From an uncultured Chloroflexia bacterium (GTDB lineage: Bacteria > Chloroflexota > Anaerolineae > JAAYZQ01), in the NCBI GenBank assembly GCA_963700285.1, contig CAVOXA010000014.1:512001-576000 (forward strand): 64,000 nucleotides of DNA, written 5' to 3'. Below are positions 14 through 17,276 of the stretch, piece by piece. The translations under genes and the position numbers were made by a program. Positions within the stretch are counted from its first letter, which is position 1. Every line of letters starts with the position of its first letter. The notes under the pieces were generated by a model, which was not told the DNA's origin, ran no database searches, and saw only the letters and a program-made list of their open reading frames with translations.

Positions 14-1171
14 GTGCGCATCTTTGACGGTGGCAGTGGGACCCTGCTGGCTGCCACCCGGGACATTGGTACGCTGCCGAGTAGCCTGACGCTGGCCGAA
101 CTCGGTTATCGCCGGCCCACGCTCTTTCTGGCAGCCAGCCAGGACGAGGCTGACCGGCTCTATGCAGCCCAGCCCGTGGTGGCGCCCAGTGGAACAGCGC
201 TGGCTGTGGTTGAGGTATCCCGTTCTGTGGCTGAAATGCGGACGCTGCTCAGCACACTGCGGCTGGCACTGCTACTTTCGGGCGCGGTGGCGCTGGCTGC
301 CGTCCTGATGGCCAGCTTTCTTCTGGCACGGAGGGTCACCGGTCCATTGGGCGACATGGAAGCGGCTACAAGGGCAATCGCCAAGGGGGATTTCGCCCGC
401 CGCTTGCCGGTTGGTTCTGAGGACGAGATTGGCCGCCTTGCGGCCAGTATCAACGAGATGGCCGCCGATCTCGCCCGCCTTGAGGCAGCCCGGAGGGATT
501 TCACGGCCAAGATATCCCACGATCTGCGTACGCCGCTGACGGCTATCAAGGGCTTTGTGGTCAACCTGCAAGACACAGCACCCAACGAGATGCAAGCCTC
601 CCTGCAGACCATGGAAGAACAGGTTGACCACCTCAGCCGTCTGGTGACCGATCTGCTGACCCTATCGCGACTACAGCGCGGCGAACTGCAACTACGCTGC
701 ACTGAGACGGACCTGGCGGCCATCGCCCGCTCGGCTGTAATCCTCATCAGCCCAAAGGCCGAGCGACTGGGTGTCGCCCTGACTCTCGAGCTGCCCGATG
801 ACCCGGCCCCGGCTTGCGGTGACGCTGGCCGCCTGCAACAGGTTGCCGTGAACTTGCTGGACAATGCCCTTCGGGCTACGCCGGCCGGCGGGTCCGCAAG
901 AGTCCGTGTGACCAGCACCGACTCGGAGGTCTGTTTGGCGGTAATCGACAAGGGCCGAGGACTGTCGGACGAAGAGGCTGCCTGCGCTTTTGAACCTTAC
1001 TTCCATGGACCGGGAGGGGGCAGCGGCCTGGGACTAGCCATTGCCCAAGAGATCGTGGCCGCCCATGGCGGTCGTATTTGGCTGGAGGCTCGTTCCGAGG
1101 GCGGAACTGAGGCAGGGTTTGCTCTGCCCCAGTGGGGAGCGGGGAATCTGCCCTGCTGCTCCACAATCTGA
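14..1171 (+). CDS. Sensor histidine kinase (TM-HAMP-HisKA-HATPase), probably 5'-truncated by the window edge
   Basis: HAMP-like GDFARRLPVGSEDEIGRLA, H-box SHDLRTPL, N-box NLLDNA, G-boxes DKGRG and GSGLGL; frame is open back to the window start. Confidence 0.93.
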   Translation: MRIFDGGSGTLLAATRDIGTLPSSLTLAELGYRRPTLFLAASQDEADRLYAAQPVVAPSGTALAVVEVSRSVAEMRTLLSTLRLALLLSGAVALAAVLMASFLLARRVTGPLGDMEAATRAIAKGDFARRLPVGSEDEIGRLAASINEMAADLARLEAARRDFTAKISHDLRTPLTAIKGFVVNLQDTAPNEMQASLQTMEEQVDHLSRLVTDLLTLSRLQRGELQLRCTETDLAAIARSAVILISPKAERLGVALTLELPDDPAPACGDAGRLQQVAVNLLDNALRATPAGGSARVRVTSTDSEVCLAVIDKGRGLSDEEAACAFEPYFHGPGGGSGLGLAIAQEIVAAHGGRIWLEARSEGGTEAGFALPQWGAGNLPCCSTI

Positions 1172-1192
1172 GACGAGGCCAGAGCCTGGAGA

Positions 1193-2410
1193 ATGCGAAA
1201 ACTCACCCGGATCGTAGCTTATTTGGCAGCCGTACTGGGGCTTGTCGCCTGTGGTGCCAGCCGTGGCACCGCGACGCCGACGCCCACCATCACCTTCTCT
1301 CATAGTGGCCCTGGCCCCACTGTCACCCCATGGCTCGTGGCCCAGGAAGATCCCGACGACAGCACATACCCGACTCTGGCCGACTTTTGGGAGGGTCGGG
1401 CCGAGTTCGAGCTGCAGGTCCAGGAGACGGGGCTGCCCCGAGGCGAATCTGATACCATCGTCATGGGCAACGGTGAGTTGTGGTCTTTTCTGCACGCCAG
1501 TGACCGCTCTGCGGGAACAGTGGACCGCTGTGGCCAGCCGGTAGAGTTTCCCGGGTGCACGGTGATCTATAAGAGCTACGATGGTGGGTTCACGTTCCAG
1601 CACGATGCCCCCCCCGTCTGCCAGTTCGAGTGTGACGGGTGCCCCTGTGATCCAGAGAGAGATCACATCGTCCAACAGCAGTACCCACGCGTCCATTTCG
1701 ACGGCGAGACTCTGGTACTGGTCTACGAATACCTGGGGCGCGTCATGCTGCGCCGTTCCAACGACGGCCTGGCCTGGAGCCAGCCCCAGCGGGTAGACGA
1801 TACCGGCATATGGAAGCTCTGGTTAGAGGACTGTCCGCCCGAGGAGTTGATCGGCGAGCATCCCTACGTACGCTACGACTATGAATGCCTGGCTGGTGGC
1901 CCGCCCGGAGTTTATGTCGAGAATGGGACCATCTATGTGTTTCTGGCAGCCGGCCAGAATCCCGGCAGCATGGGTTGCTTCTATGGCAAGGTGAAGGGCA
2001 ACGCAAGGCGATTCAAGCGCTGCGAGTCTAACCCCCTCTTCACCGGCGCGGACGAATATGGCCCGCTGGAGGAAAAGGGGGCGCGAACGAATCCCTTCTT
2101 TGACTTTCGAACCATCAGTTCTGCGGAGGTACTCAAGCTCGAGGATGGTTACTATATGCTCTACGAAGGTGTGCGGGGGCCAGGAAAAGGCGACTCTGGC
2201 GACAGCCAATTTGGATTGGGCCTGGCCCGGAGCCTCAGCCATGAGATAGATGGCCCGTGGGAAAAGTACGGTGGCAACCCCATCCTCGTGGACCTACCCG
2301 GTAACATCGGCCTGGGCCACGCCGACTTGGTTGTCATCGACGGCCTGACTGTCCTCTATACCGCTCTTGAGAAGGACAAACGTAGCCGGCTGGACTTGGT
2401 ATGGAAGTAA
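1193..2410 (+). CDS. Lipoprotein, putative beta-propeller glycoside-hydrolase/sialidase-like
   Basis: Lipobox LVAC, Thr/Pro linker, Asp-box-like motifs SYDGGFTF and SNDGLAW, and WEKYGGNPIL typical of propeller glycosidases. Confidence 0.6.
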   Translation: MRKLTRIVAYLAAVLGLVACGASRGTATPTPTITFSHSGPGPTVTPWLVAQEDPDDSTYPTLADFWEGRAEFELQVQETGLPRGESDTIVMGNGELWSFLHASDRSAGTVDRCGQPVEFPGCTVIYKSYDGGFTFQHDAPPVCQFECDGCPCDPERDHIVQQQYPRVHFDGETLVLVYEYLGRVMLRRSNDGLAWSQPQRVDDTGIWKLWLEDCPPEELIGEHPYVRYDYECLAGGPPGVYVENGTIYVFLAAGQNPGSMGCFYGKVKGNARRFKRCESNPLFTGADEYGPLEEKGARTNPFFDFRTISSAEVLKLEDGYYMLYEGVRGPGKGDSGDSQFGLGLARSLSHEIDGPWEKYGGNPILVDLPGNIGLGHADLVVIDGLTVLYTALEKDKRSRLDLVWK

Positions 2411-2476
2411 CACAAGCCGCGCATCGTAGGGTCGTGCCAGGAGCCGACCGCCAACGGGGGATAGACTCCCCCGGCA

Positions 2477-2538
2477 GCGGTAACATTGCGGTAATACTGC
2501 GGTCATGCTCCAGCAATCTCACCAAGGCATGCTACATT
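2477..2538 (+). promoter_or_regulatory. Three 11-bp direct repeats plus extended -10; probable OmpR-family operator/promoter
   Basis: GCGGTAACATT/GCGGTAATACT/GCGGTCATGCT at 2477-2509, then TGCTACATT at 2530-2538; SD AAGGAGGT before the GTG at 2561. Confidence 0.6.
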
Positions 2539-2560
2539 CATCAGAAAAAGGAGGTGTACG

Positions 2561-3625
2561 GTGAGTCGAAAACTCTTGGCACTGGTCGGTCTGTTCCTGG
2601 CGTTTGGCCTGATTCTGACCGGATGTGGTGGTGGAATCACGGCGGAAGAAGTCGTGTCCAAGATGGAGGAAACGATCGCGAACACGGACAATGCCCACGC
2701 GGTGATCAAGGCCAGCGTCGACGCCCAGGGCATCAAGATGAACGTGACGGCCGAGGTCTGGGAAGTGATGCCGAACAAGGTCCGCGCCGAGGTCCGGGAT
2801 GCCTCAGAGCCCCGTCTTGTGGGCATGGTAATGGTGAGTGACGGCGAGCAGGCATGGCTGTACGAACCGGCCAGCAATCGGGTCACGGTTGGTCGCGCCG
2901 GAGAGATGGAGATGCCCCTGCCCCAGGAAATGCTCAGCTCCCTCAACGAAACAATCCAGGAGGTGCTGGACGTCAGTGACGTAGAACTCGCCGGCGAAGA
3001 GGTGGTGGCCGGCCGCGATGCCTACAAGCTGAGCCTCAGTCCCCGCGAGGATGCTGAGCAGGAGGTCTTTCCTGGCAACGGAACCGCCACGATCTGGGTA
3101 GACAAGGAACAGTGGATTGTCCTCAAGGCCGTCTATGAAGCCAGTACTCTGGGAAGGGGTAGCATGGAAGTCCAGAGCTTTGAGCTAAATCCGGGCGTGG
3201 CAGATGACCTGTTCGACTTTGAGGTGCCAGCGGGGGCTACTGTCGTCGATGCCAAGGTGCAAGAGCCCGAGCCTATGGCGCTGGATGAAGCAGTTGCCCA
3301 GGCGGGGTTCCCACTCATGGTACCAGACTATGTGCCCGACGGGGTGACCCTCATCGAAGTCTTTAAGGTTGGAGACTCGTTTGTCCTGCGCTACAATCAC
3401 TCGACCCAGGTCTCATTCGCAGTCGTTCAAGGGCCGGAGCTAACGGGGCCACCACCGTTGGGACAATCACAGGACGTCTCCGTACGAGGCCAGAGCGCGA
3501 CTGTTGTCAGTGACCAGGCCGGAGGCAATACCTTCCTATACTGGACTGAAAACGGCGTGACGGTGACGATAGCTGGACATATCAGTGTAGAGGAATCGCT
3601 CCGGGTAGCAGATTCGCTCAAGTAA
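2561..3625 (+). CDS. LolA-fold lipoprotein with C-terminal DUF4367-like domain
   Basis: Lipobox LTGC; LolA-like motifs VSDGEQAWLYEP, IWVDKE and DDLFDFEVPAGATVVD; C-terminal PDYVPDG...LYW domain. Confidence 0.75.
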   Translation: MSRKLLALVGLFLAFGLILTGCGGGITAEEVVSKMEETIANTDNAHAVIKASVDAQGIKMNVTAEVWEVMPNKVRAEVRDASEPRLVGMVMVSDGEQAWLYEPASNRVTVGRAGEMEMPLPQEMLSSLNETIQEVLDVSDVELAGEEVVAGRDAYKLSLSPREDAEQEVFPGNGTATIWVDKEQWIVLKAVYEASTLGRGSMEVQSFELNPGVADDLFDFEVPAGATVVDAKVQEPEPMALDEAVAQAGFPLMVPDYVPDGVTLIEVFKVGDSFVLRYNHSTQVSFAVVQGPELTGPPPLGQSQDVSVRGQSATVVSDQAGGNTFLYWTENGVTVTIAGHISVEESLRVADSLK

Positions 3626-3653
3626 CCGCCGCGTCAGGGCCCTGCGCTCAACC

Positions 3654-3682
3654 TTCGGCCTGCAACAGTGTTGCAGGCCGAA
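3654..3682 (+). terminator. Intra-operonic perfect 13-bp hairpin (mRNA stabiliser or partial terminator)
   Basis: TTCGGCCTGCAAC-AGT-GTTGCAGGCCGAA; no clear U-tract. Confidence 0.55.
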
Positions 3683-3759
3683 AACTTGCCGGGTATGGTT
3701 GAGGGCTTGAAGCAGGTACGGAGCAGGAGCATGCACAGGACGGGCATAAGGAGTATCGA

Positions 3760-4461
3760 TTGAACAAGGGGACAGAATTCGCCTTCCGCGCCGTGGATCT
3801 GACACGGAGTTTTGCCGTGGGCGAGACCAAGATCGACGCGCTGCGTGGCATCAACCTGGTAGTGAGCAAAGGGCAGTTCGTGGCACTGGTAGGTCCTTCG
3901 GGATCGGGAAAGTCCACCCTGCTCAACCTGGTAGGCGGGCTGGATCGGCCTACCGGGGGCCAACTGTGGGTGGGAGGTGTAGAACTGAGCGCCAGCAAGG
4001 AGAAAGCCCTGATAGAGCATCGGCGGCAGCGGGTGGGTTTTGTCTTCCAAAGCTTTAACCTCCTGCCCCGTCTGACAGCCCTGGAAAACGTCGCGTTGCC
4101 GCTCATGTTTGTCGGGAAACCGGAGAAGGAGCGACTCCATCGGGCGCAGAACCTACTGGCCAGTATCGGGCTAAGGGAGCGCATGGACCACCGTCCAAAC
4201 CAACTGTCAGGCGGCGAGCAGCAACGAGTGGCCATCGCCCGCGCGTTGGTGGGCCAGCCAGCCATCATCCTGGCCGACGAGCCGACGGGGAACCTGGATA
4301 GCACCACCGGCAGCGAGATTATGGCCGTTCTCCGCCGGCTGAATCGGGTCGAGGGGGTAACCCTGTTGTTGGTAACCCATGACCCTGAGGCAGCCTCCTT
4401 TGCAGATCGCGTCGTCCAGTTGCGTGACGGCCAGATCGTTGAAACGGGAGGGCAACCATGA
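3760..4461 (+). CDS. ABC transporter ATP-binding protein (LolD/MacB type)
   Basis: Walker A GPSGSGKS, LSGGEQQRVAIARAL, ADEPTGNLD, VTHD. Confidence 0.95.
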   Translation: MNKGTEFAFRAVDLTRSFAVGETKIDALRGINLVVSKGQFVALVGPSGSGKSTLLNLVGGLDRPTGGQLWVGGVELSASKEKALIEHRRQRVGFVFQSFNLLPRLTALENVALPLMFVGKPEKERLHRAQNLLASIGLRERMDHRPNQLSGGEQQRVAIARALVGQPAIILADEPTGNLDSTTGSEIMAVLRRLNRVEGVTLLLVTHDPEAASFADRVVQLRDGQIVETGGQP

Positions 4462-5723
4462 GCCTCCGAGATATCCTGCAGACTGCCTTGAGCAACCTCA
4501 GCCGCCACAGGGCCCGAACAGCACTAACCACCGTTGGCGTCATCGTCGGCATTCTGACCATCGTCACCATGGTGTCGCTGGGCATCGGCGTCCAGAGCGA
4601 AATGCAGAACACTTTTGGCAGCGTTGGTCTGGAGGGAATTCGGCTCTATCCGGAAACGGAGGAGGCTGGATCCTACCAGGTCTTTGGCGAGCCAGTGCGC
4701 ACAGCCCTGCTGACACCCGAGTTGGTCCGCGCTCTGGAGGCCCGGGACGACGTAGTCGAGGTGGTCCCGTTCCTGCGTATCCCTGGCAGTATGCACGTCA
4801 CGGTTCGGACGGACGAACAGGAAACCGAGGCCAGGCCCTGGGGACCCCAGCCCGGCAACGTTGGGGAACCCTTTATTGAGCGCACCAAAGCACTAGCTGG
4901 GAGCACGATTCCACCCGAGGCCGGGGGCGGCGCAGTGTTCGGCGAGGGCCTCATCACAAGACTCGGGTACCAACCGGGCGATGCCCCTGAGCTTGTTGGA
5001 AAGAAGGTAGAGATTGTGCTCTATGCTCCCCGTGGCGAATCGCAGGCTTTCGACCTTCAGATAGTCGGCATTACCGATCAGCGGCAGAACAGCCTGGCCC
5101 TGGCTCTGCCAGACAGGCTGGATATGCTGTCCTGGTGGTACGACGATCCCGAGTATCTGGCTCACCGGGGATACGATGAGGTTTTCGTCCGAGCCGCCTC
5201 GCTCAACGACGCCAGCCAGATCGTGGATTGGTTGAGCGAGGAGGGCTATCGGGTCCAGTCGCTCAAGATGATGCTCGACATGGCAAACCGGGGGATGGTC
5301 ATTATCCAGACGATGCTGGCGTCGGTAGGTGCGTTGGCCCTGCTGGTGGCCAGTATCGGCATCGCCAACACGATGATCATGGCGGTCTATGAACGAACGA
5401 AGGAGATAGGCATTCTGAAGGCTGTGGGCGCCTCCCCAGGCCAGATCCGGACGCTCTTTGTGCTGGAGGCATCGCTCATTGGCCTCATGGGCGGCATCAT
5501 CGGCACGATCCTGGGCTGGTTGCTGGGCAAGGCCCTCAACGTACTCATATTAGAAATCCTGCGCTGGCAGGAAGTCAACGTACAAGGCACCTTTTTTGTC
5601 GTATCGTGGTGGCTGGTACTTGCTGCGCTGGCTTTTGCCACGCTGATTGGTCTGCTGGCAGGGCTTTATCCCGCTGCCCGCGCCGCCAGGCTTGCTCCGC
5701 TGGATGCACTGCGGTACGAGTGA
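4458..5723 (+). CDS. ABC transporter permease (MacB/FtsX family)
   Basis: RTALTTVGVIVGI, GIANTM...ERTKEIGILKAVGA, C-terminal YPAARAARLAPLDALRYE; ATGA overlap with the ATPase. Confidence 0.93.
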   Translation: MSLRDILQTALSNLSRHRARTALTTVGVIVGILTIVTMVSLGIGVQSEMQNTFGSVGLEGIRLYPETEEAGSYQVFGEPVRTALLTPELVRALEARDDVVEVVPFLRIPGSMHVTVRTDEQETEARPWGPQPGNVGEPFIERTKALAGSTIPPEAGGGAVFGEGLITRLGYQPGDAPELVGKKVEIVLYAPRGESQAFDLQIVGITDQRQNSLALALPDRLDMLSWWYDDPEYLAHRGYDEVFVRAASLNDASQIVDWLSEEGYRVQSLKMMLDMANRGMVIIQTMLASVGALALLVASIGIANTMIMAVYERTKEIGILKAVGASPGQIRTLFVLEASLIGLMGGIIGTILGWLLGKALNVLILEILRWQEVNVQGTFFVVSWWLVLAALAFATLIGLLAGLYPAARAARLAPLDALRYE

Positions 5724-5768
5724 GGGCTGCGCAGTCAGTCATGTTCCGGCCCAGCAGAACGGAAGCGG

Positions 5769-6467
5769 CTATATCTGCCTTACGAAGCGATAGCCTACTC
5801 CGTGCTCGGTGCGTATGTAGGTCGGATGGCTGGGATCGGGCTCCAGCTTCTGGCGCAGACGCCAAATGTAGAGTTTTACATAGTCCAATTCATTCACGTA
5901 CTCCTGGCCCCAAACGGATTCCAAGATGCGTGAAGTGGGGAGTATGCGACCCATATTCTCGGCCAGGAGAAAGAGCAGCCGGCGCTCTGTCGCCGTCAGT
6001 TCCACCGGCTTGCCGCGCCGGCTGACCTCCCACCGTTCCGAATCGATTACCAACTCGTCGTCAGCGTAGAGCACTTGATCCTGGCCGGATGCGTTCAGAC
6101 GCGAGCGCCGCAGGACGCTCTGGATCCTGGCCTCCAACTCTCGTAGACTGAAGGGCTTGGCCACATAATCGTCCGCACCCATTTGCAGCCCACGTACCTT
6201 GTCGGCCTCCTGACCGCGGGCGGTCAGCATGATGATGGGGATGGTGGACACTTCCCGGATGCGGCTGCAGACCTCCCAGCCATCCAGCCTGGGCATCATG
6301 ATATCAAGTAGAATCAGATCGGGCCGTTCTACGAACAGTTTCTGCAGTCCTTCACGACCATCACCGGCAGTGGCAATGACAAACCCAGCCGTTGTCAGGT
6401 ACAACTTGAGTGCCTCTACCAGGTTGGAATCATCCTCTATGAGCAGCAGCTTGGTCTGGGATTCCAT
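5769..6467 (-). CDS. OmpR-family response regulator
   Basis: LLIEDD, LLDIMMP, LTA, KPFS; winged helix with YIWRLRQKLE...GVGY; ATG at 6467 overlaps the kinase 3' end. Confidence 0.95.
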   Translation of the reverse strand: MESQTKLLLIEDDSNLVEALKLYLTTAGFVIATAGDGREGLQKLFVERPDLILLDIMMPRLDGWEVCSRIREVSTIPIIMLTARGQEADKVRGLQMGADDYVAKPFSLRELEARIQSVLRRSRLNASGQDQVLYADDELVIDSERWEVSRRGKPVELTATERRLLFLLAENMGRILPTSRILESVWGQEYVNELDYVKLYIWRLRQKLEPDPSHPTYIRTEHGVGYRFVRQI

Positions 6468-9400
6468 CAATCCACTCCCCCCCTGCAGTGGTGGCCAGCC
6501 AGGCCTCGGCCTTGACCGGCAGGGTCACTGAGAATCGCGTTTCTACACCCGGCTCGCTTTGCACCTCGATGGTACCATCGTGCATTTCCACTGCCTCCTT
6601 GGCCAGCACAAGGCCCAAACCGGTCCCCCGGATCCCGGCCTCCCGTACCAGCCTCGAGCGATAGAATTTTGTGAATAGAAGCGGGATATCCTCCTGGGGA
6701 ATGCCTATCCCATGGTCTGCAACTTCGATAATCAGAACATCGCCCTCGGCTCTGACCGCCACGGATATCAGGCCACCTTCAGAACTGAACTTGATTGCAT
6801 TGCTGACAAGGTTTTTGATCACTATGGTAATCATCTCCTTGTCACCGATGATAAGCGGCAGCTTCGAAGGCATATCGAGCTGGACAGCTATGTTCTTTTT
6901 TGAGATCTGTATGTCAAGGAGTGCAATGACGCCATCAATAACTTCGTTGATAGACAGAAAGTCCATCCGCGCGGTATATCGCTCGGACTCTAGGCGGGAC
7001 AGATCCAGCAGACCATTGATCAGCTCGGTGAGCCAGTCCGTCTCCTGGTCAATGATTGTCAGGAATCGGTGGCGGACCGCCCGATCATCACCCTCCAGGT
7101 TGTCCAAGAGCAGCTCCGTATAGGCCTTGATAGAGGCCAAGGGTGCCCGAAGCTCGTGGGAAACGTTGGCCACGATGCTGGACTTGAGCCGGTCGACCTC
7201 TTTCAGGCGACTGACGTCCGAGAAATTGAACAGGTACCCCTCGCGGATAGGGGTGACACCCAGAAGGACGTCACGGGTACGAGTCTTACCCTCCAGGCTT
7301 GCCTCGATGGGAGCAACCCGCTTACCTGATAGCATTACTTCACATAGCAGGCTGTCTTCTCCCCACAACTCGGGTGGAAACACGTCACACAGTTGCTTGC
7401 CCAGGAGTTCGTGAGCACCGTAGCCGGTCAAGGTTTCAACCTCAGGATTCACGGCGAGAATCGTCTGGGCCGGATCCACCACCATGATCCCCGAAAATGC
7501 CTGCTCCACGATGGTCTCTGTCCGCTCTTTCTCCTCCATGGTCTCTTCGTAAAGCCGGGCGTTCTCGATGGCGATGGTCGCCTGGGTACCGATGGTGGTG
7601 GCCAAATTGACTTGCTCTTCATTGAACTGACGGCCACCTTGCACATGGTCCAGCACCATCAGGCCGATGGCCTGGTCTTTTCTGACCAGAGGAACCACAA
7701 GCAGGCTCTTGATACCAAAAGGCTCGATCCACCTGGGGGGCAGGAGCGAGATCGCTCCCTCATCGATGATAACCGGCTTCCGCTCCGTGAGTACCCGCTG
7801 GATCAGCGGGACTTGGTCCACGGTTTCGATGTAGGTCTCCTGCTTGAATGCCCTCCACAGAACCCTGTTGTTGACCCCTTCCCTCCCATGGCCAAACTGA
7901 GACATCAGCGGGATGAGCCGGCCACCCTCTTTGTCCAGGAGCAGGATGCTGCACCGATCGACGTTACAGACCTCTGCCGTCCTCCGGGATATAATCTCCA
8001 GGAGTCGATCCAAATCCAAGGTCGAGCTGACTGCCCTCGCGATGTCCAGGTGAGCCAGAGATTCCTCGGCCTTGCGCTGTTCCAGGGAAAAGAGCCAGGC
8101 ATTCTGGACTGCTACTGCCGTCTGGTTGGCCAGCGTGGTAAGGATTTGTTGTTCATCCTGGGAATAGGGGATCTCTGAACGCTTGGGACCCAAGACCAAG
8201 ATACCGATCAATTCATCCCTCACCGAAAGCGGAACGGAAACCTCCGCGTCCATGCGATCGAGATCCTGGCGCTCCTGGACCCACAGCGCCTTGAACTGGG
8301 GAATCACGTCCATTTGATGCCGGGTCAGAGATCTGTCATTGTCAACCAACCACTTCACCAGGGGATGGTCCCCTCTCAGCTTGAGACCCAACCTGCCACC
8401 CAATCCCCTTTGGGCCATCAGGTGATACTCTCCGCTTTCTTCCCGCCTTAGAAACAGGGCCGCCCGCTCTATGTGCATCGTCGTCGTGATTTCGTCCAAG
8501 ATCATGCGCATGAGGCTGTCCAGATCTAGGACGGAGGCCACGGTACGACTGAGCCGCTGGATCATCAAGCTAGCATCGTATTTTTCGCGAAAGAACCAGC
8601 GGTCGAACCAGGACTGAGCCCGATTCCAAATGGGCTGGACAACAATGGCCGTAACAGTGGCCAAGGCCAGGGACAGCAAAAAGACCTGGTAGCCGAGAAC
8701 CAGGTGAAGCAGGTTCACGCCAAAGTACACGATAAGAAAGTAGCCGGTACCGAGGATCGCGGTGGGGATCGAGTAAAGCAAACCCTTGCGGATAACAACT
8801 GTAATATCGAAGAGCTGGAAGCGGAGGATAGCATAGAAAATCAGAATGGCGTTGATGACGTTGGCAGTTATGTCTATAGGATACGCCTTCAGTTCAGGGC
8901 TGTAGTTGATCGCAGATCCCAGAAAGAGAATGGCCAAACCAGATAGCAAGTATCTAAGTTGGCTGCGCTCGATGATGGACGTCGAGCGCCGATAGCGAGC
9001 GGCGAGGTTAACGAAACTGTACATGAGATAGCCAAAGAGGTAGAGGCCGATTGGGAAAGTGAGAAACCCAAAGCGGGGCAACCAGAATGTCGAGTCGGAG
9101 AACTTGTACATGGCATCGATCACAAAAGGTCCACCCAACAGAGTCCACAAGGCTATCAGGACTCCGGCGACATAGCCAATTCTGATCACCCAGCGATGGG
9201 TATGGATTCCCAAAAAGTCCCTGGTGAATTGAGCGTAGAAGAGACCGAAGGCACTGCCAAGCCCTATTACGATCCTGTACCACTGCAGCGCCATCTCTGG
9301 GGTAGAGGAGAAGGCCGCCCCCGTACTGCCGATCTGCCAGACCAGCATGGCCAACAAGAACAGCGCAAAGGAGCGAACATTCTTCCTCCACAGATGGGGC

Positions 9401-9468
9401 CGGAGCAGCAACAGCAGAAGGAGGTAGCAAGCCAGGGCAATCAGGCACATGACCTGAATGAGGGTCAT
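6430..9468 (-). CDS. Multi-TM (7TM-type) sensor histidine kinase with two GAF, PAS, HisKA and HATPase domains
   Basis: About 8 N-terminal hydrophobic segments; two GAF ends (AVAVQNA, IAIENARLYE); PAS; SHELRAPL; NLVSNAIK; GTGLGL. Start placed at ATG 9468 from the ATGA overlap. Confidence 0.92.
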   Translation of the reverse strand: MTLIQVMCLIALACYLLLLLLLRPHLWRKNVRSFALFLLAMLVWQIGSTGAAFSSTPEMALQWYRIVIGLGSAFGLFYAQFTRDFLGIHTHRWVIRIGYVAGVLIALWTLLGGPFVIDAMYKFSDSTFWLPRFGFLTFPIGLYLFGYLMYSFVNLAARYRRSTSIIERSQLRYLLSGLAILFLGSAINYSPELKAYPIDITANVINAILIFYAILRFQLFDITVVIRKGLLYSIPTAILGTGYFLIVYFGVNLLHLVLGYQVFLLSLALATVTAIVVQPIWNRAQSWFDRWFFREKYDASLMIQRLSRTVASVLDLDSLMRMILDEITTTMHIERAALFLRREESGEYHLMAQRGLGGRLGLKLRGDHPLVKWLVDNDRSLTRHQMDVIPQFKALWVQERQDLDRMDAEVSVPLSVRDELIGILVLGPKRSEIPYSQDEQQILTTLANQTAVAVQNAWLFSLEQRKAEESLAHLDIARAVSSTLDLDRLLEIISRRTAEVCNVDRCSILLLDKEGGRLIPLMSQFGHGREGVNNRVLWRAFKQETYIETVDQVPLIQRVLTERKPVIIDEGAISLLPPRWIEPFGIKSLLVVPLVRKDQAIGLMVLDHVQGGRQFNEEQVNLATTIGTQATIAIENARLYEETMEEKERTETIVEQAFSGIMVVDPAQTILAVNPEVETLTGYGAHELLGKQLCDVFPPELWGEDSLLCEVMLSGKRVAPIEASLEGKTRTRDVLLGVTPIREGYLFNFSDVSRLKEVDRLKSSIVANVSHELRAPLASIKAYTELLLDNLEGDDRAVRHRFLTIIDQETDWLTELINGLLDLSRLESERYTARMDFLSINEVIDGVIALLDIQISKKNIAVQLDMPSKLPLIIGDKEMITIVIKNLVSNAIKFSSEGGLISVAVRAEGDVLIIEVADHGIGIPQEDIPLLFTKFYRSRLVREAGIRGTGLGLVLAKEAVEMHDGTIEVQSEPGVETRFSVTLPVKAEAWLATTAGGEWIDGIPDQAAAHRG

Positions 9469-10187
9469 CTTGCGTTCTCTCGCACCGCTTTCATGATCAA
9501 GGCAGAGGGATACCAGAAGCGGCGTGGAGGCCACTCTACCATCTGGATCTCCTTGAAACCAAAGCCCGATAGGATCTCACGCCACTCATCCGCTGAATGG
9601 ATATGCGAGAAGGCATCCGCCTCTGCCTGGGCCCGTGGGCTTCTCTTGATCAGCCTGTATACTGACACAATGGCCCGCATGAGCACACGCCCCGGCAGCG
9701 AGCGCCAGTGAGAAGGGGCGGCCATGTCGGCCATAACAAGGTGGCCGGCCCCCGCCAGCACACGGTTGATCTCTCCAAGCAACTGTGTCGCATCCATGTG
9801 GTGCATGCCCAGACCACAGACAACTGCGTCAAACCTACCCGCCACAAGCGGCATTTCCATGGCTGAAGCGCACACCAGGCGGACGCGATGGGTCAAACCC
9901 GCCGCCTCAATGTTCTTGATACCATAATCGAGCATGGCAGGCGTGACATCCAGCCCTACAACCCGGGTACCATCACCCGCTCTGGCCGTGATCTCGGAAC
10001 TGCTCACCGCGGTGCCGCAGGCCACGTCCAGAACGATATCTCCGTCGTTCATGGGCACCATTCCGGCCAGGTAACCGACGAATTCCCGGTAGCCCAAACC
10101 GCAGAATTCGCGAACTTCGCGGTCGACGGTCTCTTCATAGTGAGGCGCCAATTCGGTAAAGGCATCAATGACTACATTGTCGCCCAC
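9465..10187 (-). CDS. Class I SAM-dependent methyltransferase
   Basis: Motif I VLDVACGT, GLDVTPAML, FDAVVC...MHH; overlaps both neighbours. Confidence 0.9.
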   Translation of the reverse strand: MGDNVVIDAFTELAPHYEETVDREVREFCGLGYREFVGYLAGMVPMNDGDIVLDVACGTAVSSSEITARAGDGTRVVGLDVTPAMLDYGIKNIEAAGLTHRVRLVCASAMEMPLVAGRFDAVVCGLGMHHMDATQLLGEINRVLAGAGHLVMADMAAPSHWRSLPGRVLMRAIVSVYRLIKRSPRAQAEADAFSHIHSADEWREILSGFGFKEIQMVEWPPRRFWYPSALIMKAVRENAR

Positions 10188-11807
10188 TATGCCTCCCTGG
10201 CAAGCTCAGCGCTGATGTCCAGAAGCCTCGCGACAATCTCGGCAGAAGGCTGCATACGAGGGGGTTTCAAATGGCCAATATCTGCCCCTTCGGTCTGCTT
10301 TTGCTCCAGATAGCGCCGAAATGTCCCCAGCGAAAGAGTGGAAATCCTGAAGGGATTCATCTTCATGATGTCATAGTAGGTAGCATAGTCTTCTACGCAC
10401 TCTACCAAGGCGCTGTGCAATTCAGTGGCCAGCTTCTCTGATTTGAGGTCTTCACCCTCGACGCACATGTGAATGACGGCGTCCTTTTCTTCGGAAACAT
10501 ATTCCTTGCGCGCCGTCCAATCCACCAACGATAGATCCAGTCGACCGATACCCTGCCAGATTGCCCGCTCAGTCAGAAGTACAAGGCTGCCCAGATCGAT
10601 AACATCATCAGCTCTAGACTCCATCACCATCTGGGGCAAATCAATGCCCAGCTCCTCGTCGCGCACGGCGAGGATGCTGATCAGGTCACCGATAATGTAC
10701 CGGACAAAGGCCCCGCCAGCAAAACTCGTCCCGAGCAGGACATACCTGCCTGGCCCAACCTGATTCATCAGCAACGTCCTAGGTTTGTGCGTCGGGTCTT
10801 GGCGCCAGGCATAGTACTCCTCCTCGGGCATGAACTCCCAAAGAGCGCTGTCTGGCGAAAAGGTCAGCCCATCGCTCTTGGCTCCCCAGGCTTGAATCGC
10901 AATGGTCCCAAACTCAGTACAAGCATACGCTTCCAGCGGATCACAGCCCCACATGGCCTCGATCCGTTTCTTGTAGATCTGCACATCCATCCCAGAGGCT
11001 ACGATTCCCTTCGGACTCCAGAGATCCCTGGGCAGCATGGACCTGCGCTGCAACTTGCTTGATGCGAGAGCCTTCCCAAGGCGATAGATGGCCATCGGAC
11101 GCAAAAGCTCCTTCGATGCGGATAGCTGGCCGGAACCCTGGGAAAAAGCCTCACCCATGCGCAGCAGGACCGACCCGATCCCCACAAAATACCCGATCCC
11201 TGTCTCTATCGAACGCAGAAAAGCTTGATTGAGACGTTCTTCGAAGCTCATTTCCTCCGCCTCAGGGATGGGAGGGATGAAGCGGAAGGGAAATTCCTCA
11301 GAGATCGCTCTCATGCTTGTCCCCGAGATATAGGGCGGGGGAGCAACGGCATACAAGAAACGTTCCACCCTCTTCGAGGTTGATATCGCCTTTGTCCTTT
11401 GCGCTGGCCAACATCAGGGTGGCAAGTAGATACTTGCCGGTCAGCGAATAGAACTGGTGCGAGGTGGGGACCATCTTGCCAGTGTACTCCCCCGACCTGC
11501 CCGAAGTTCGCATCCAGCAGTAGGGTTTGACTGGCAGCACATCTTCCCTCTGAGGCTCGAGGTATTCCACATAGTCCTTGTAGGTCGTTATCGGAGCCAT
11601 CCGCCGGAAATCCTCTAGACTCTCCGGCATGTCTGCGCCGATAATCCTCCTCCCCAACTCACAGGCACCCAGGAGATGCAACTGCTCCATCAGCAGACGC
11701 TCTTGAATGCCCATGAACTCATCGATGGTCAGGTCAAAGAAACCACAGTACTTGTTCCATAGTTCGTCCTTGCGTCCTTGTCTGAGCAGCTCTGCGGCAG
11801 TTGCCAT
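10187..11807 (-). pseudogene. GH3-family acyl-acid amido synthetase (auxin-responsive GH3-like), split by a +1 frameshift near 11365-11370
   Basis: ORFs 11298-11807 and 10187-11368 carry GH3 motifs RTSGRSG..K.VP, YACTE.G and RY.IGD; span 1621 nt = 540 codons + 1; removing one G gives ...NLEEGERFLYAVAPPPY. Confidence 0.85.
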
Positions 11808-12028
11808 TTCACATGTCCTTTACTGTGTATGAGTGGTAAGTCCAGTGGTTCCAGCGCCGCCTTGCGCAAGTGCTTTTGGAGAATCCTGAAAGGCAACGCG
11901 CGTTGAAGTCATCCAACAAGCTGAGCGTGTTGCACCCCAATTGATCGATCGGCATGACTGGATTGCGAAGGTACATTGGGTTTGAGCAAGCTAAGAAACC
12001 ATTGCCCTGCACCAGTGCTCCTCGCCTC

Positions 12029-12057
12029 TTGCTATACGGCAAGTACTATGATATAAT
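12029..12057 (+). promoter_or_regulatory. Sigma70-type promoter, overlapping a weaker divergent candidate for the GH3 operon
   Basis: TTGCTA-17-TATAAT on +; on - TTGCAT-16-TATCAT at about 12076-12049. Confidence 0.5.
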
Positions 12058-12101
12058 GGCTCCAGGAGAATGCAAGGCAGAAACTACAAAGGAGTCGATT
12101 C

Positions 12102-12782
12102 ATGAAAAAGCCATCATCTTGTGCAGTCATCCTTCTGGCTTTTCACCAGTGTTGCCCGCCCTGGCCTCGAAGAGTTCGGACTATGAGCGTACCTTCTGGA
12201 CCACCGGTTGACACCACGGTCTACGATAACGAGTCTGAAGGGAATCCATGCGGGACACATGGAACATTCTTCAGGAGGAGGGTTCATCCTCTGCCCACGG
12301 TCCGCCCACTTCGGGTGGGGAAAACGATCGCGACTGAAGGGTGACCCATACTGCGCAATGTGGGTCCAGGGGCGGAGATATGGACGGCCTGATAGCACTA
12401 CAGGTTGCTCCCGGGCAGCGCCCATATCGAGACTGGCACCGGGCAGGTCGAATGCGGTGTCAGTGCCCGAGATCCATTTATCGATCCGAATGCATCCAGA
12501 TCAGTGCCGGAAAGGGGTCTAGTGGATTTTAACCCTGAAACGGGGACAGGCTCGGGCATGGGCACCAACCAGGGCAAACTCTGGTGACATCTGATAACGG
12601 AAAGATTTAATCGCGGTTCTCCTTTGCTGGGCAAGACTGACTCCGTTAGCGTCTGGGGTCGCTTCAATGTCCTGGGCGGAACAGGTCGGTATAAGAATCT
12701 TGAAGGCAATGGAATATATCGGGGCATGGCTGGCCTGATTTTAACGGTCAAGTACACCGGCCGCTACTGCGGTCCAGCGTAG
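12102..12782 (+). pseudogene. Decayed secreted protein gene with a dirigent/allene-oxide-cyclase-like GGTG motif
   Basis: AAGGAG + ATG AAA AAG, signal-peptide pieces in different frames; reading through TGA 12585 gives GRFNVLGGTGRYKNLEGNGIY...YTGRYCGPA*. Confidence 0.5.
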
Positions 12783-12789
12783 AACTGGT

Positions 12790-12824
12790 GCGGGTGGCTG
12801 CCTTTGCCTGAGGCAGCTACCCGC
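12790..12824. terminator. 14-bp GC-rich hairpin between convergent units
   Basis: GCGGGTGGCTGCCT-TTGCCTG-AGGCAGCTACCCGC. Confidence 0.55.
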
Positions 12825-12876
12825 GACCCTGCCGCCATTTGACCAGGTAGCGCCCATACGCCAGTGCTCTTGCCAC
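12817..12876 (-). CDS. Candidate 19-aa small ORF MARALAYGRYLVKWRQGRG
   Basis: AAGAAAGGAG upstream of GTG; lies between a minus-strand promoter (13118-13091) and the hairpin at 12790-12824. Confidence 0.3.
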   Translation of the reverse strand: MARALAYGRYLVKWRQGRG

Positions 12877-13090
12877 CTGCCTCTCTATCTCCTTTCTTGC
12901 GCGATTGATCTGGAAACGGGCCCACTCTCCGGCCGGTGGGCGCTAGGCATCCTGGGGGGCCAGTGCGCCGCGGGCCGGCCAAGGCCAAGCCTTCCCGCCT
13001 CACCTCAACAGGAATAAACACCGTCACTCCGCCTCCGCAAGACTAGCCTGGCAGAACCATGATAGCGTCTCCAGGTCTGCCTATAGCAAC

Positions 13091-13118
13091 AGTATAACAG
13101 ATCCTCCTGGTTTGACAA
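13091..13118 (-). promoter_or_regulatory. Sigma70-type promoter firing toward lower coordinates
   Basis: TTGTCA-16-TATACT with extended -10 TG. Confidence 0.5.
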
Positions 13119-13273
13119 GTGCGCAACAACTTGACCTCATCTTATGCTGTCTGCTTGCGTCCTGCTATCTAGGAACCGCTCAAGGCAGCCAGAGTATACG
13201 GGTTGGGGGCTGGGGGCGAACGCATGAGCCGCGACGGCCCAGTGACCGTTCATCGTGTCAGTCGACCGCAGGC

Positions 13274-13302
13274 TTGCCAACGAGGGCGAAAGATAGTACA
13301 AT
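13274..13302 (+). promoter_or_regulatory. Sigma70-type promoter
   Basis: TTGCCA-17-TACAAT; supports a start at GTG 13331. Confidence 0.5.
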
Positions 13303-13330
13303 TGGCCACAGAAAGGAACAGAGGAATCGC

Positions 13331-14353
13331 GTGTTCGCACCATTCAGCCCGGGCGACAGTCTGGGGGTATATCGCCTGCAGCGTCGAGGGATGTCCCTCG
13401 ACCTTCAGCGCAATCTCATGCATCCAACCAAGCCTCTTACCGAGGCGTGGTTGGCGTTCCTGACGCAGCAGGCCATGGGCCAACCTACCTATGTGCTCCA
13501 CGACCCACACGATGGGGAGGCGTTTGTCCAGGTCAGGTACCGGCCTCACCAGGCCATTGCCGACGTGACCTGCTTGGCCCCCGCACTCGGGGACAGTCGC
13601 CGTGCAGCCCCCGCTTGGTCCTACCTGCTGGATGGAGCCGGAATCGAGGCAGCCGCTCAAGGCATTCAGCGGATATTTGCCAACCTGCCGGCGTCAGGCG
13701 CTGAGGTCGATGTGTTTCAGCAAGCCGGGTTCACCTTGTATGCCGAGGAAGAAATATACCACCGGGCGCCGGGACAGCCTGATCCGGTACAAGGTACACA
13801 TCCAGTCTTGCGGCCACAGCGAGTCGAGGATTTGCCCGCGCTGCAGAAGCTATGCGTGGCCATTACGCCACAGCGCGTACGCCAGGCAGAGGGGGGCATT
13901 GGTCTTACCACCACGTCGGAGAGAAACTGCCGGCGTTTTGTGCTGTACTCGCCCGAGGGCGACGATCTCTTGGCCGCGCTCACCCTTTGTACGGGCGGTA
14001 GGGTTCACTGGCTGCGGCTGCTGGTACATCCAGATTCCCGGCATGTGGCTGCAGACCTCGTCGGCTGGGGGCTCGACACCCTGGCTGACCAGCCAGGCAA
14101 GGCTATCTACTGTAACGTCCGGCAGTATGAGAACGGCACGAGTGAGGCGTTGGAAGCGGCCGGGTTCCGGCTCCACGGAACACGATCGCTGATGGTTCGG
14201 CACACCGTGGCCTGGATCAAGACACCAGCCTCGGAGGCCATACCGGCCATGAAGGCAAGAGCCGAAGCCGTGCCACCCGCCTATCGCATCAACGGCGAGC
14301 CAGACCTCTCAAGTCCTGACGGCCGGCTCGCCGCTGAAACGCGATCTGATTGA
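13331..14353 (+). CDS. Tandem GNAT-fold protein (putative acetyltransferase)
   Basis: Two GNAT-like ends (VFQQAGF, ALEAAGF), LRPQRVEDL, LLVHPD; the first 73 codons of ORF 13112 look non-coding. Confidence 0.6.
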   Translation: MFAPFSPGDSLGVYRLQRRGMSLDLQRNLMHPTKPLTEAWLAFLTQQAMGQPTYVLHDPHDGEAFVQVRYRPHQAIADVTCLAPALGDSRRAAPAWSYLLDGAGIEAAAQGIQRIFANLPASGAEVDVFQQAGFTLYAEEEIYHRAPGQPDPVQGTHPVLRPQRVEDLPALQKLCVAITPQRVRQAEGGIGLTTTSERNCRRFVLYSPEGDDLLAALTLCTGGRVHWLRLLVHPDSRHVAADLVGWGLDTLADQPGKAIYCNVRQYENGTSEALEAAGFRLHGTRSLMVRHTVAWIKTPASEAIPAMKARAEAVPPAYRINGEPDLSSPDGRLAAETRSD

Positions 14354-14439: not shown

Positions 14440-15969
14440 ATGCAAGACAACATTACTGACGATCTAGCTGTGTTGCTGGAGGTTGTACCCCCAGCGATCG
14501 CCGGCGCAATTCGCAAAGAGAACCACGGGGACGATCTGCTAGAGATTGTCCTGGACTTGGGCCGTCGCCCCGAAGCCCGCTTTTTGAGTCGTGAGGTCAC
14601 GCTTGGTGACCAAGAAATCACCCGGGCAGAAATCGACTATGTTGTAGACCGAGTGAGCGAGTTCACCACCGATAACCGGGCTGGCATCGAACGGACCTTG
14701 CACCGCATTTCCTGCATCCGCAACCGGCAGGGGGACGTCGTTGGCCTGACCCTGCGCGTGGGTCGGGCTGTGTACGGCACCATTGACATTATTCGCGATC
14801 TGCTTGAATCCGGCAAGAGCATCTTGCTGCTCGGCAAGCCCGGTGTAGGCAAGACGACGCTGTTGCGTGAGGCAGCCCGGGTGCTTGCCGAGAAGAAGCG
14901 AGTTGTGGTCGTTGATACCTCCAACGAGATCGGCGGTGACGGCGATATTCCCCATCCAGCCATCGGCCGCGCGCGGCGGATGCAGGTGGCTACCCCCGAG
15001 TTCCAGCACCAGGTGATGATTGAAGCAGTGGAAAACCATATGCCTGAGGTGATCATTATCGACGAGATCGGTCGGGAGTTGGAAGCGGCCGCAGCGCGCA
15101 CGATCGCCGAGCGGGGCGTACAACTGGTGGGTACCGCTCACGGTAACTCGCTGGACAACCTGCTCCAGAACCCAACCCTGTGTGACCTGGTCGGAGGTAT
15201 CCAGGCAGTGACGCTGAGTGACGAGGAAGCTCGAAGGCGCGGCACTCAGAAGACCGTACTGGAACGAAAGGCGCCGCCGACCTTCAACGTGGTGATCGAG
15301 ATAAAGAACTGGCAACACCTGGCCCTTCATCACGATGTCACGGCAGCAGTGGACGCCTTGCTCCGGGGTCGCAGCCACGCCCCCGAAGTGCGCTACCGCG
15401 ATGAGACAGGCCAGGTACAGATCGAGCAGGCGGTTGTCGCGCCCCAGTTCCGGTTGGAGGAGGATCCTGCTCGCATAGCCAGTCAAGAGGCAGCCCGTCC
15501 CCAGACTCTGCGCGTTTATGGCTATGGCATCGGCAAGAATCGCCTGCAGCAGGCAGCCCAGAACCTCCACCTACCGGTGGACCTGGTGGATGAGCTGCGC
15601 CAGGCCGATGCAGTGATTACGCTCAAGAGCTACTACCGGAGACGACCCCAACCCATCAACGAGGCGGAACGAAAAGGCGTACCCATCTACGTCCTCCGCT
15701 CCAATACCGTATCCCAAATGGAAAGCTGCCTGGCTGACGTGTTCGGTCTCAGCGTATCTGACCTGGATCCACTCACCATCGCCCTCCGCGAAACGGAGGA
15801 CGCAATCCGCACGGTATTCTCTGGAAAAAAATCAGCAGACCTGGCGCCTCAGAACTCGTTCATCCGGCGCCAGCAACACGAAATGGTCCGCCAGGCCAAT
15901 CTAGTATCTCACAGCTATGGCAAAGAACCCTGGAGACATGTGCGCATCTTTTCCACCCAGCGGCATTAG
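14440..15969 (+). CDS. Ycf45/SpoIIIAA-like AAA ATPase with C-terminal R3H domain
   Basis: [31 protein letters not shown]; RRQQH R3H motif. Confidence 0.9.
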
Positions 15970-16073
15970 GGGACGTCCGGCACAGCGGGGCTGCCATCAA
16001 CTACGTTCCCCATTCTTTGAATCGTTCCATCGGGCAAAGCAGGCCTTCAGATCACAGGCGCAAGGAGAGTAAC

Positions 16074-16484
16074 ATGGCATTCAGGTTCCCGTCGGAGGAG
16101 TGGGTCATGGCCTTCATGGACGAGGTCAACGGCAGCGAGGCCTATGGCAAAGCTGCTGCCACTTGGGAGGGTGATTTTTACTTTGTCGTTGAGCCAGGAT
16201 CCGGTCTCACGGAGACCATGGTGCTGTACATCGATCTCTGGCACGGAAAGGCACGTTCCGCAGGTGTCATCGCTGACAAAAGCGAAAAGAGCCCCGAGTT
16301 CACCATCCGCGCACCGATCGGTACCTGGCGCCGGGTGATTGAGAAGAAGCTCGACCCCATCCAGGGCATGATCACCGGCCAGCTAAAGCTATCGGGCACG
16401 TTGAGCAAGATCATGCGCGCCCCCAAGGCAGCTGCCGAGTTGGTCAACTGCGCCACCCAGGTCCCAACCGAGTTTCCATCCTAG
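16074..16484 (+). CDS. SCP2 sterol/lipid-binding domain protein
   Basis: FPSEEW, DLWHG, LDPIQGMITGQLKLSG; SD AAGGAG before ATG 16074. Confidence 0.85.
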   Translation: MAFRFPSEEWVMAFMDEVNGSEAYGKAAATWEGDFYFVVEPGSGLTETMVLYIDLWHGKARSAGVIADKSEKSPEFTIRAPIGTWRRVIEKKLDPIQGMITGQLKLSGTLSKIMRAPKAAAELVNCATQVPTEFPS

Positions 16485-16511
16485 CCAGGCGCGATTGGGG
16501 TCAGTCCGCCT

Positions 16512-17276
16512 ATGCCCTTCCAAGCGGTCGCCGGCCACCAGACTTACTATGTTCAGCGGCGGCCCGCTCTGGCTGGCCGACCCCCGGTCGTGTTCATCCA
16601 CGGTGCGGGGGGGACGCATCAGCATTGGCTCTTTCAGGTACGGGATCTGGCCCAGGCGCCAACCTATGCCATCGACCTGCCGGGCCATGGCAGGTCAGAG
16701 ACCCCGGGACGAGACAGCATCCAGGCTTACGCCGACTGGCTGATCGCCTTTCTGGACGCGGTTAAGCTGGAGCAGGTCGTTTTGGTTGGCCACTCGATGG
16801 GTGGTGCGGTTGCGCTCAGCGCGAGCATGCAATTCCCGGACCGGGTTCAGGGTCTGGGGTTGGTTGCGACGGGCGCCCGGCTTCGGGTGTCGCCATCCCT
16901 GCTTGATACGATCCGCCGAGATCCTCGGGAGGCGGTGCTTGCGATCTGCAGCTCGGCATTCGGCCGTGAGGCACCGCCAGAGATGCTCCGGCTGGCGAGA
17001 GAACAGATGGACGCAGTGCCAGAGGGAGTACTCGGAAGCGATTTCAGGGCCTGCGACGATTTTGATGTCAGGGACCGCGTTGGCCAGATCACAGCTCCAA
17101 CCTTGGTACTGTGCGGCAGCCAGGATGCGCTGACACCTCCCAAGTATTCTGTCTATTTGCGCGATCAGATTCCCGGGGCCAAGCTCCATCTGGTTGCGGG
17201 GGCCGGCCACATGGTGATGATAGAGGAGCCCCACGAGGTGGTCCGAGCCTTTGACAGCTTTCTGGACGGCTTGTAG
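16512..17276 (+). CDS. Alpha/beta hydrolase
   Basis: HGAGG, DLPGHGRS, GHSMGG nucleophile elbow, D (GSQD), H (AGH). Confidence 0.92.
   Translation: MPFQAVAGHQTYYVQRRPALAGRPPVVFIHGAGGTHQHWLFQVRDLAQAPTYAIDLPGHGRSETPGRDSIQAYADWLIAFLDAVKLEQVVLVGHSMGGAVALSASMQFPDRVQGLGLVATGARLRVSPSLLDTIRRDPREAVLAICSSAFGREAPPEMLRLAREQMDAVPEGVLGSDFRACDDFDVRDRVGQITAPTLVLCGSQDALTPPKYSVYLRDQIPGAKLHLVAGAGHMVMIEEPHEVVRAFDSFLDGL

Follow-up and report, generated by a model that had tools for sequence, protein, structure and literature searches.

A 64,000-nucleotide stretch of an uncultured Chloroflexia genome (assembly GCA_963700285.1, contig CAVOXA010000014.1, positions 512,001–576,000; hereafter the window) encodes a GH3-family ligase, a methyltransferase, a sensor histidine kinase and a response regulator in one cassette. 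The GH3 enzyme and the input module of the kinase, which comprises seven transmembrane helices (7TM), two further transmembrane (TM) helices and a GAF domain, are an inherited pair that has been kept across three phyla while the output domains and the methyltransferase were swapped. Based on sequence comparisons, this pair may well be, and on balance probably is, a signal synthase with its own cognate receptor. An earlier reading of the window, made from its letters only (the sequence-only reading), had proposed all four genes as one unit for making and sensing a signal. GH3 and the input module stood as the core of that unit, whereas the kinase and regulator turned out to be one of six types of output and the methyltransferase to be exchangeable or optional.

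The four genes form a real operon. Re-reading of the coordinates bore out four minus-strand genes that each overlap the next, and the overlaps reported earlier were exact. The stop codon TAG of GH3 and the start codon GTG of the methyltransferase have base 10187 in common, an ATGA at 9468–9465 joins the methyltransferase to the kinase, and the regulator starts (ATG 6467 or TTG 6470) 38–41 nucleotides within the end of the kinase gene (stop codon 6430–6432). The regulator is likely the cognate of the kinase in the window. It is not core to the module, because it was absent where the output was HD-GYP, GGDEF or STAS. A promoter scan of positions 5500–13100 gave three sites, with 3.3 expected.

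The main set of loci was gathered by GH3 alone, blind to the sensor. After duplicates (L034, L056, L082, L115), a distant GH3 (L023) and loci L024 and L025 were dropped, 114 loci were left, 89 of which had at least 1.5 kb of downstream flank and could be evaluated. The same membrane sensor module was encoded on the same strand, no more than 1.3 kb downstream of GH3, in 88 of these 89 loci. The sensor profile was built from the GH3 neighbours themselves, with Pfam as the independent check: among 44 neighbours, 26 matched HisKA_7TM at an E-value of 1e-5 or better and 42 matched a GAF family. In a second set of 30 Dehalococcoidia-type loci, obtained by a search of the phylum, the sensor was found within 5.2 kb in 29 of 29 evaluable loci. 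It was downstream on the same strand in 23 of them. In the remaining six, all from genus g264, it was upstream and on the opposite strand, with a pilus ATPase gene in between. New Spirochaetota loci showed a PEMT-type methyltransferase, GH3 and the sensor in four out of four cases, one with a partial PEMT match. One locus from a viral collection encoded PEMT, GH3 and a 7TM/GGDEF/HD protein, and its three proteins were identical to consecutive entries of Enterocloster clostridioformis (CDB61129-31, CUX74732-34). HisKA_7TM matches numbered three in the window's 7.05-Mb genome and one in genome G500, where it lay beside GH3. Since there are three such matches in 7.05 Mb and a sensor follows GH3 in nearly every main-set locus, the GH3–sensor link is far beyond chance. 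The neighbourhood check suggested by the sequence-only reading, in which rare adjacency would have spoken against a joint function, therefore found adjacency to be the rule in both sets.

Some genomes had two or three divergent GH3 copies, each beside a sensor where the flank was covered. No GH3–sensor fusion was found among the loci examined. An apparent triple fusion of PEMT, GH3 and sensor in L097 was rejected, as its frame runs through an assembly gap, and long GH3 open reading frames (ORFs) in L093, L107, L109 and L131 were not counted as fusions, since they seem to consist of open frame upstream of the start. Two tandem GH3–sensor cassettes were present at L058:5800-13830 in a genome recorded as a betaproteobacterium; their sensors group with the Anaerolineae type, so transfer or mis-binning is possible. 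An HTH_45 winged-helix gene and the gene for a small protein often stood at the head of the Dehalococcoidia-type cassette (L180, L181, L199; also L184-L203). The cassette adjoined type IV pilus genes (PilM, pilus ATPase, prepilin peptidase) and a gene for a TackOD1-domain protein; the pilus neighbours in several of these loci hint at control of attachment or DNA uptake.

The phylogenies of enzyme and sensor were compared over 75 pairs. Tree distances of GH3 correlated with those of the 7TM domain at r = 0.80 (partial 0.73), versus 0.50 (partial 0.12) for the GAF domain, and the highest value in 999 shuffles was 0.16. The nearest neighbour by GH3 was within the three nearest by sensor in 67 of the 75 pairs. 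Among 44 family-coded rows, the nearest GH3 was in another family in 17; the 7TM domain agreed in 13 of those 17, so the pair seems to move together. The co-phylogeny check that had been recommended, computed here without a species tree, thus indicated that GH3 and sensor co-diverge. In a FastTree phylogeny of 158 membrane domains, 29 of 40 sensors fetched regardless of GH3 formed a group of their own (support 93), and all 118 GH3-linked rows were placed outside it. Because the tree separates the GH3-linked rows from that 29-member group, one sub-lineage of the sensor family is tied to GH3, with occasional extra receptor copies.

The window sensor matched HisKA_7TM (PF16927) with 38.5 bits, above the cut-off of 28.6. 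A structure model of residues 1–468, based on 80 sequences (predicted local distance difference test 87), contained seven helices, the fourth and fifth of which flank a hairpin, then two more helices, a linker and the GAF domain. The kinase had been described as having about eight TM helices; the multi-pass sensor was recognized correctly, but the model gives nine (seven plus two). Lysine and arginine numbered 1.6–2.8 per inside loop versus 0.3–1.1 per outside loop, which fits an outside N-terminus. The first seven helices were compared with G protein-coupled receptors (GPCRs), with matches to ADGRL3 (8jmt; Z 16.2, root-mean-square deviation (rmsd) 4.7, 217 residues aligned), mGlu5 (Z 15.1) and EP1 (Z 14.9). 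The 7TM domain is thus predicted to have a GPCR-like fold, a likeness that implies no function. Conserved polar residues clustered at TM6-loop-TM7 (N188, Y196, P197, D199, N203), in addition to W44 and Y15, and all of these are candidate ligand-site residues. Conservation was also among the highest in the cytoplasmic loop that follows TM7, in the linker helix and in the GAF domain. The outputs of the 44 neighbours were HisKA (28), HisKA_2 (4), HisKA_3 (1), HD-GYP (9), GGDEF plus HD (1) and STAS (1). Because many of these outputs are non-transcriptional, GH3 seems to feed the sensor rather than to be controlled by it. Two sensors had unusual architectures: one in genus g264 (L184:1758-5096) carried two tandem HisKA_7TM domains before GAF, GGDEF and HD, and one of 2029 aa (L091:1158-7247) had eight GAF domains before PAS and HisKA.

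The GH3 gene of the window was broken into two ORFs by one extra base at 11355–11358. This base was missing from contigs of four public runs covering the site. Two of these (X1, X6) were otherwise identical to the window, with fewer than 31 letters on one side of the site, and two (X2, X3) bridged it fully at approximately 94–96% identity. A genome of the same genus (G001) encoded an intact 539-aa orthologue with 92% identity, although the G001 kinase gene itself has single-base gaps. Since four short-read contigs and the G001 orthologue lack the extra base, the frame break is likely an assembly error. Contigs of 151 nucleotides from RNA runs on GH3 (X7, X10) were not used as evidence of expression, as contigs cannot show transcription.

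The N- and C-terminal GH3 domains of the window copy scored over the Pfam cut-off and the middle domain just under; all three were over the cut-off in an orthologue. The adenylation motifs, which the sequence-only reading had seen, were indeed present as nucleotide motifs I–III (TSGRSGEYTGK, YACTE and GGAFVRYIIGD). The plant and OlsH motifs used for comparison were those given in the main text of PMC12493201. Residues T101, S102, G103 and K111, Y294, T297 and E298, and R369, Y370 and D374 were kept in 93–100% of the 75 paired sequences. A GH3 profile from 31 relatives matched ten plant GH3 sequences in the PDB (E-values 2e-16 to 6e-11), mostly over the C-terminal half, and its best structure matches included auxin- and benzoate-conjugating enzymes, tied with JAR1. 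The helices likely lining the acid pocket, the position of which was taken from plant GH3s, vary among the bacterial members, and therefore no substrate is transferable from the plant enzymes. The GH3 clade was detected in 51 of 401 genomes of the class, 29 of 401 of the phylum and five of 301 in a Spirochaetota sample; named relatives included Dehalococcoides mccartyi, Oscillospiraceae and other Clostridia. In a branch of Clostridia (alignment A5; P0459 and relatives) motif I reads TTWEGG...K, not TSGRSG...K, and is nearly invariant in 17 sequences. A plasmid search with the Clostridia-type GH3 gave no match, and a first viral scan was likewise empty. The window genome had two more GH3-N-domain genes outside the clade (L024 and L025; G000:C10:1718608-1718946 and G000:C1:1218197-1218554). 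Neither had such a sensor module in the flank fetched; the gene of L025 appears split and lies near genes resembling those for CoA-transferase subunits.

Two unrelated methyltransferase folds occupy the same slot in the cassette, a class I fold and a membrane PEMT/ICMT fold. The window enzyme did not match an NCBIfam family at cut-off. In the 72 main-set loci with both flanks, 46 had only a class I enzyme, 16 only a PEMT/ICMT-fold enzyme, five had both and five had none. The second set (28 complete loci) had PEMT in 17, another class I type in two and no methyltransferase in nine. Judged from gene content, methylation appears to be a recurrent but optional step. PEMT was fused to GH3 in P0247 and P0230, and P0284 and P0286 were alike by sequence but missed by the Pfam model. 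Genes for FabF, B12 radical-SAM or ThiF proteins were encoded between GH3 and the sensor in four of 30 loci (L180, L181, L196, L199), where tailoring enzymes would be placed. ThiF-type enzymes act on N-acyl amino acids in oxazolone synthesis.

Of the 69 loci with sufficient upstream sequence, 11 had an intact gene for a secreted beta-barrel protein, divergent from GH3 and no more than 1.5 kb away. The structure model of the family was closest to DUF3224 (2q03; Z 16.3, rmsd 2.2, 125 residues aligned), with dirigent proteins and allene oxide cyclase lower (Z of about 11). The window copy was broken, including its signal peptide, with a profile match at 12507–12767 (68.6 bits). One contig of X2 reaches into this remnant with indels, no near-identical contig covers it, and the barrel encoded at the corresponding position in G001 is intact but differs considerably. 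We can only guess that the barrel might carry, modify or quench a hydrophobic ligand. A promoter-like site (12029–12057) was located by the barrel remnant.

We propose that GH3 would use ATP to activate a hydrophobic acid (probably a fatty acid) by adenylation before coupling it to an amino acid, in the manner of plant GH3s and OlsH. The methyltransferase, where present, would methylate the product on nitrogen or carboxyl, lowering its charge and changing its identity. The amphipathic product could then enter the membrane and bind in the outer half of the GPCR-fold bundle near TM6–TM7. Helices TM8–TM9 and the GAF domain would pass the change on to the output. In the window this would be phosphorylation of H771 and the OmpR-type regulator; at other loci it would be enzymes of cyclic di-GMP (c-di-GMP) turnover or STAS. 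A diffusible cell-to-cell signal is slightly favoured over a report on the cell's own lipid pool.

Several observations weigh against this synthase–receptor reading. Members of the sensor family are more widespread than GH3, being present in 176 of 401 class genomes (E-value 1e-35 or better; the tally includes the unpublished genome G357, which underlies nothing else here) versus 51 of 401 for GH3. None of the 40 sensors fetched regardless of GH3 had a GH3 in the fetched flank, several flanks being cut by contig ends. Four true orphan sensors stood among the GH3-linked rows, apart from L191, which was mislabelled by the distance cut-off, and six rows cut by contig ends; L128, the exception in the main set, had GH3 without a sensor within 8 kb. 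The 7TM domain is nearer to GH3 in the DNA than the GAF domain is, so linkage and output swapping alone could raise its correlation, and the GAF alignment is shorter and related rows are not independent. The GPCR Z scores of 14–16 are barely above the helical-bundle range, and a shared fold is no proof of function. The methyltransferase was missing in 5/72 and 9/28 loci; its two types co-occurred in 5/72 and therefore may not be equivalent. There was no exporter among the conserved neighbours of either locus set. A simple motif sampler found no shared operator in 94 upstream regions, and hence no sign of autoinduction.

In a rival explanation, the receptor would sense an external or metabolic acid (fatty, aromatic or indole), and GH3 and the methyltransferase would remove it by conjugation and methylation and thereby set a threshold or end the signal, as modelled on group II plant GH3s acting on auxin. 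Such a role, which we consider unlikely, explains the same linkage and co-divergence and accounts for the many GH3-less sensors and the optional methyltransferase, and the auxin- and benzoate-conjugating enzymes among the top structure matches, tied with JAR1, are in line with it. However, the FabF and radical-SAM genes in some operons indicate acyl-chain building, and the fusion of GH3 to a membrane enzyme of PEMT fold accords with a lipid product. Regulation would also usually be directed at an inactivating enzyme, but in many cases the output is STAS or an enzyme of c-di-GMP turnover. Alternatively, no diffusible molecule might be involved: GH3 could be a physical co-sensor that binds at the cytoplasmic face or GAF domain of the receptor and signals the state of its substrate or of ATP, or it could acylate the receptor, with methylation of the receptor by the methyltransferase as an adaptation mark. 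The near one-to-one pairing, the translational coupling and the conservation of the loop after TM7, the linker helix and the GAF domain would be expected from this arrangement, and ICMT-fold enzymes can methylate proteins (the NCBIfam match was below cut-off). It is nevertheless quite unlikely, given that GH3 tracks the 7TM domain more than GAF, that polar residues are kept at the predicted outer ends of TM6–TM7, that the catalytic motifs of GH3 are fully kept and that no GH3–sensor fusion was found, L097 spanning an assembly gap.

The enzymes could also make a bulk aminolipid like the ornithine lipid of OlsH/OlsG, with the sensor monitoring or controlling membrane composition. OlsH with OlsG is the only characterised bacterial GH3–methyltransferase operon that we found (main text of PMC12493201), OlsG is described as related to phospholipid N-methyltransferases (main text of PMC12971839), and a PEMT-fold partner occurred in 21/72 and 17/28 loci. 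Against this, the intact orthologue P0002 scored 18.7 bits with the OlsH model NF052613, the cut-off of which is 620, and no OlsI-type alpha/beta hydrolase was among the conserved neighbours. The patchy presence (51/401) and the two or three divergent copies beside sensors also misfit a housekeeping lipid, and we regard this explanation as very unlikely. An SCP2 and alpha/beta-hydrolase pair at 16017–17276 might have taken the place of OlsI but was dismissed as local synteny, the hydrolase (16512–17276) recurring only in the nearest relatives and one other locus. Finally, the loci are related and their counts not independent, which would allow the genes to be neighbours by inheritance alone, with no common function. 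That is extremely improbable for a link that outlasts three phyla, GH3 identities down to 35%, changes in gene order, moves between families and six output swaps.

For a signal synthase with its cognate receptor, the analogy drawn earlier was LuxI/LuxR. The synthase-plus-receptor idea itself gained from the pairing and co-divergence, but LuxM/LuxN of Vibrio harveyi (signal HAI-1), with its membrane receptor, appears to be the closer parallel: an amide-forming synthase and a dedicated membrane receptor, the cognate pairing with GH3 being suggested here by linkage. According to the main text of PMC5007282, nine helices make up the LuxN receptor, and its N-acyl amide ligand is bound in the region between helices 4 and 7. 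Nine helices are also predicted here, a likeness in helix count and description only; NCBIfam, PDB sequence, fold and Atlas searches returned no LuxN sequence or model, so the comparison does not extend to sequence. Unlike LuxM, the synthase here would by family be an ATP-dependent ligase (GH3) and not an acyl-homoserine-lactone synthase. The cassette also usually adds a methyltransferase, and its outputs include c-di-GMP enzymes and STAS.

The claim that bacterial GH3s are largely uncharacterised applies to this clade but fails as a blanket statement, since OlsH of Singulisphaera acidiphila makes N-acyl-ornithine from free fatty acid and ATP, and its operon also encodes OlsG, an N-methyltransferase, and OlsI, an acyltransferase (main texts of PMC12493201 and PMC12971839). 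Both systems place a bacterial GH3 next to a methyltransferase, and OlsG is described there as a phospholipid-type N-methyltransferase. The window has a class I enzyme instead; the PEMT-fold enzymes of its relatives are set beside OlsG by description only. The window clade is not OlsH, as the NF052613 score indicates, and the conserved neighbourhoods (not whole genomes) had no hydrolase cluster corresponding to OlsI. The constant partner here is a sensor, whereas none is described in the consulted text of the two Ols papers. The review PMC12971839 lists orders with OlsH homologues and does not mention Chloroflexota in its main text. Plant GH3s (JAR1/GH3.11, GH3.12/PBS3, GH3.5, GH3.6, GH3.15) belong to the same family and have the three nucleotide motifs, but their similarity is remote and the partner here is a membrane receptor. 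JAR1 makes the active jasmonate conjugate (main text of PMC12493201).

The TM and GAF parts of the sensor were homologous to PrsK along their length (residues 13–455 versus model 7–458, E-value 4e-9), and 73 of 80 members matched. The window module scored 35.6 bits and a full-length relative 137.5 with the PrsK model TIGR02916, below its cut-off of 300, and no sigma-54 regulator or PEP-CTERM genes of the kind found with PrsK/PrsR were conserved at GH3 loci. The ExoAT synthases are a family of the FeeM type, unlike GH3. These synthases of N-acyl amino acids are reported to be connected with the PEP-CTERM/exosortase A system of PrsK/PrsR (as cited in the main texts of PMC11072679 and PMC7293339). 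The main texts searched gave no ligand for PrsK and none for HisKA_7TM, of which PMC5847659 says no more in its main text than that it is a described sensor domain. The sequence-only reading had known of no system with this layout, and none was found in the open-access literature (main texts). Pairing a synthase with a membrane receptor is known logic, but the searchable literature has no account of this class of synthase, this lineage of receptors or their exchangeable outputs.

A broader picture is possible, although we would sooner doubt it than assume it. Anaerobes might widely use the cassettes for cell-to-cell signalling based on a new class of synthase, in which lineage-specific N-acyl amino acids, methylated by enzymes of two folds and in some cases further tailored, would be recognized by co-diversified GPCR-fold receptors that feed kinases or c-di-GMP. 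If so, bacteria would have a counterpart of the jasmonate-isoleucine signalling of plants, and a secreted barrel of allene-oxide-cyclase fold would be an optional part that carries or modifies the ligand. Anaerolineae, dechlorinating Dehalococcoidia and gut Clostridia would use a common chemical language missed by searches for LuxI or AgrD. Dehalococcoides mccartyi and gut Enterocloster would have a native autoinducer, and N-acyl amides would have a new source in gut Clostridia, from which they could reach receptors of the host as well. This would bear on granule and biofilm formation, bioremediation cultures and microbiome metabolites. The proposal suggests where HisKA_7TM sensors could obtain a ligand and what the bacterial GH3s of this large, uncharacterised clade could do. 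It is directly testable, since the triad is present in cultured Enterocloster clostridioformis (PEMT, GH3 and a GGDEF/HD-GYP sensor) and in Dehalococcoides mccartyi.

Table 1. Genes and domains of the cassette and the divergent barrel gene, in window coordinates.
Feature	Position	Strand	Basis and remarks
GH3-family acid:amino-acid ligase (predicted activity)	10187..11807	-	Pfam GH3 N/M/C; split into ORFs 11298-11807 and 10187-11368
Class I S-adenosylmethionine (SAM) methyltransferase, 240 aa, UbiE-like	9465..10187	-	Pfam Methyltransf_25/11
Sensor histidine kinase, 1012 aa	6430..9468	-	7TM+2TM+GAF+GAF+PAS+HisKA (H771)+HATPase_c; Pfam, structure model, H box
7TM input domain, residues 1-216	8821..9468	-	Predicted GPCR-like fold, N-terminus outside
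TM8-TM9, linker helix and first GAF, residues 225-457	8098..8796	-	Remainder of input module; stays with GH3 while outputs change
OmpR/PhoB-type response regulator, 232 aa	5769..6467	-	Pfam Response_reg (REC) and Trans_reg_C
Degraded DUF3224/allene-oxide-cyclase-type secreted beta-barrel gene	12102..12782	+	Divergent from GH3; tblastn E-value 1e-16

Beyond the barrel remnant, the plus strand of the window encoded a 413-aa ORF without a Pfam match (13112–14353) and an AAA/R3H protein (14440–15969). A contig of X5 had one extra base at 13105, and the start of the 413-aa ORF may suffer from an assembly error. On the other side, the genes at 14–5723 converge on the end of the operon. They encode a HAMP-HisKA kinase (14–1171), a 405-aa lipoprotein-like ORF (1193–2410), a LolA-like protein and a MacB/FtsX ABC transporter, and are possible targets of the regulator.

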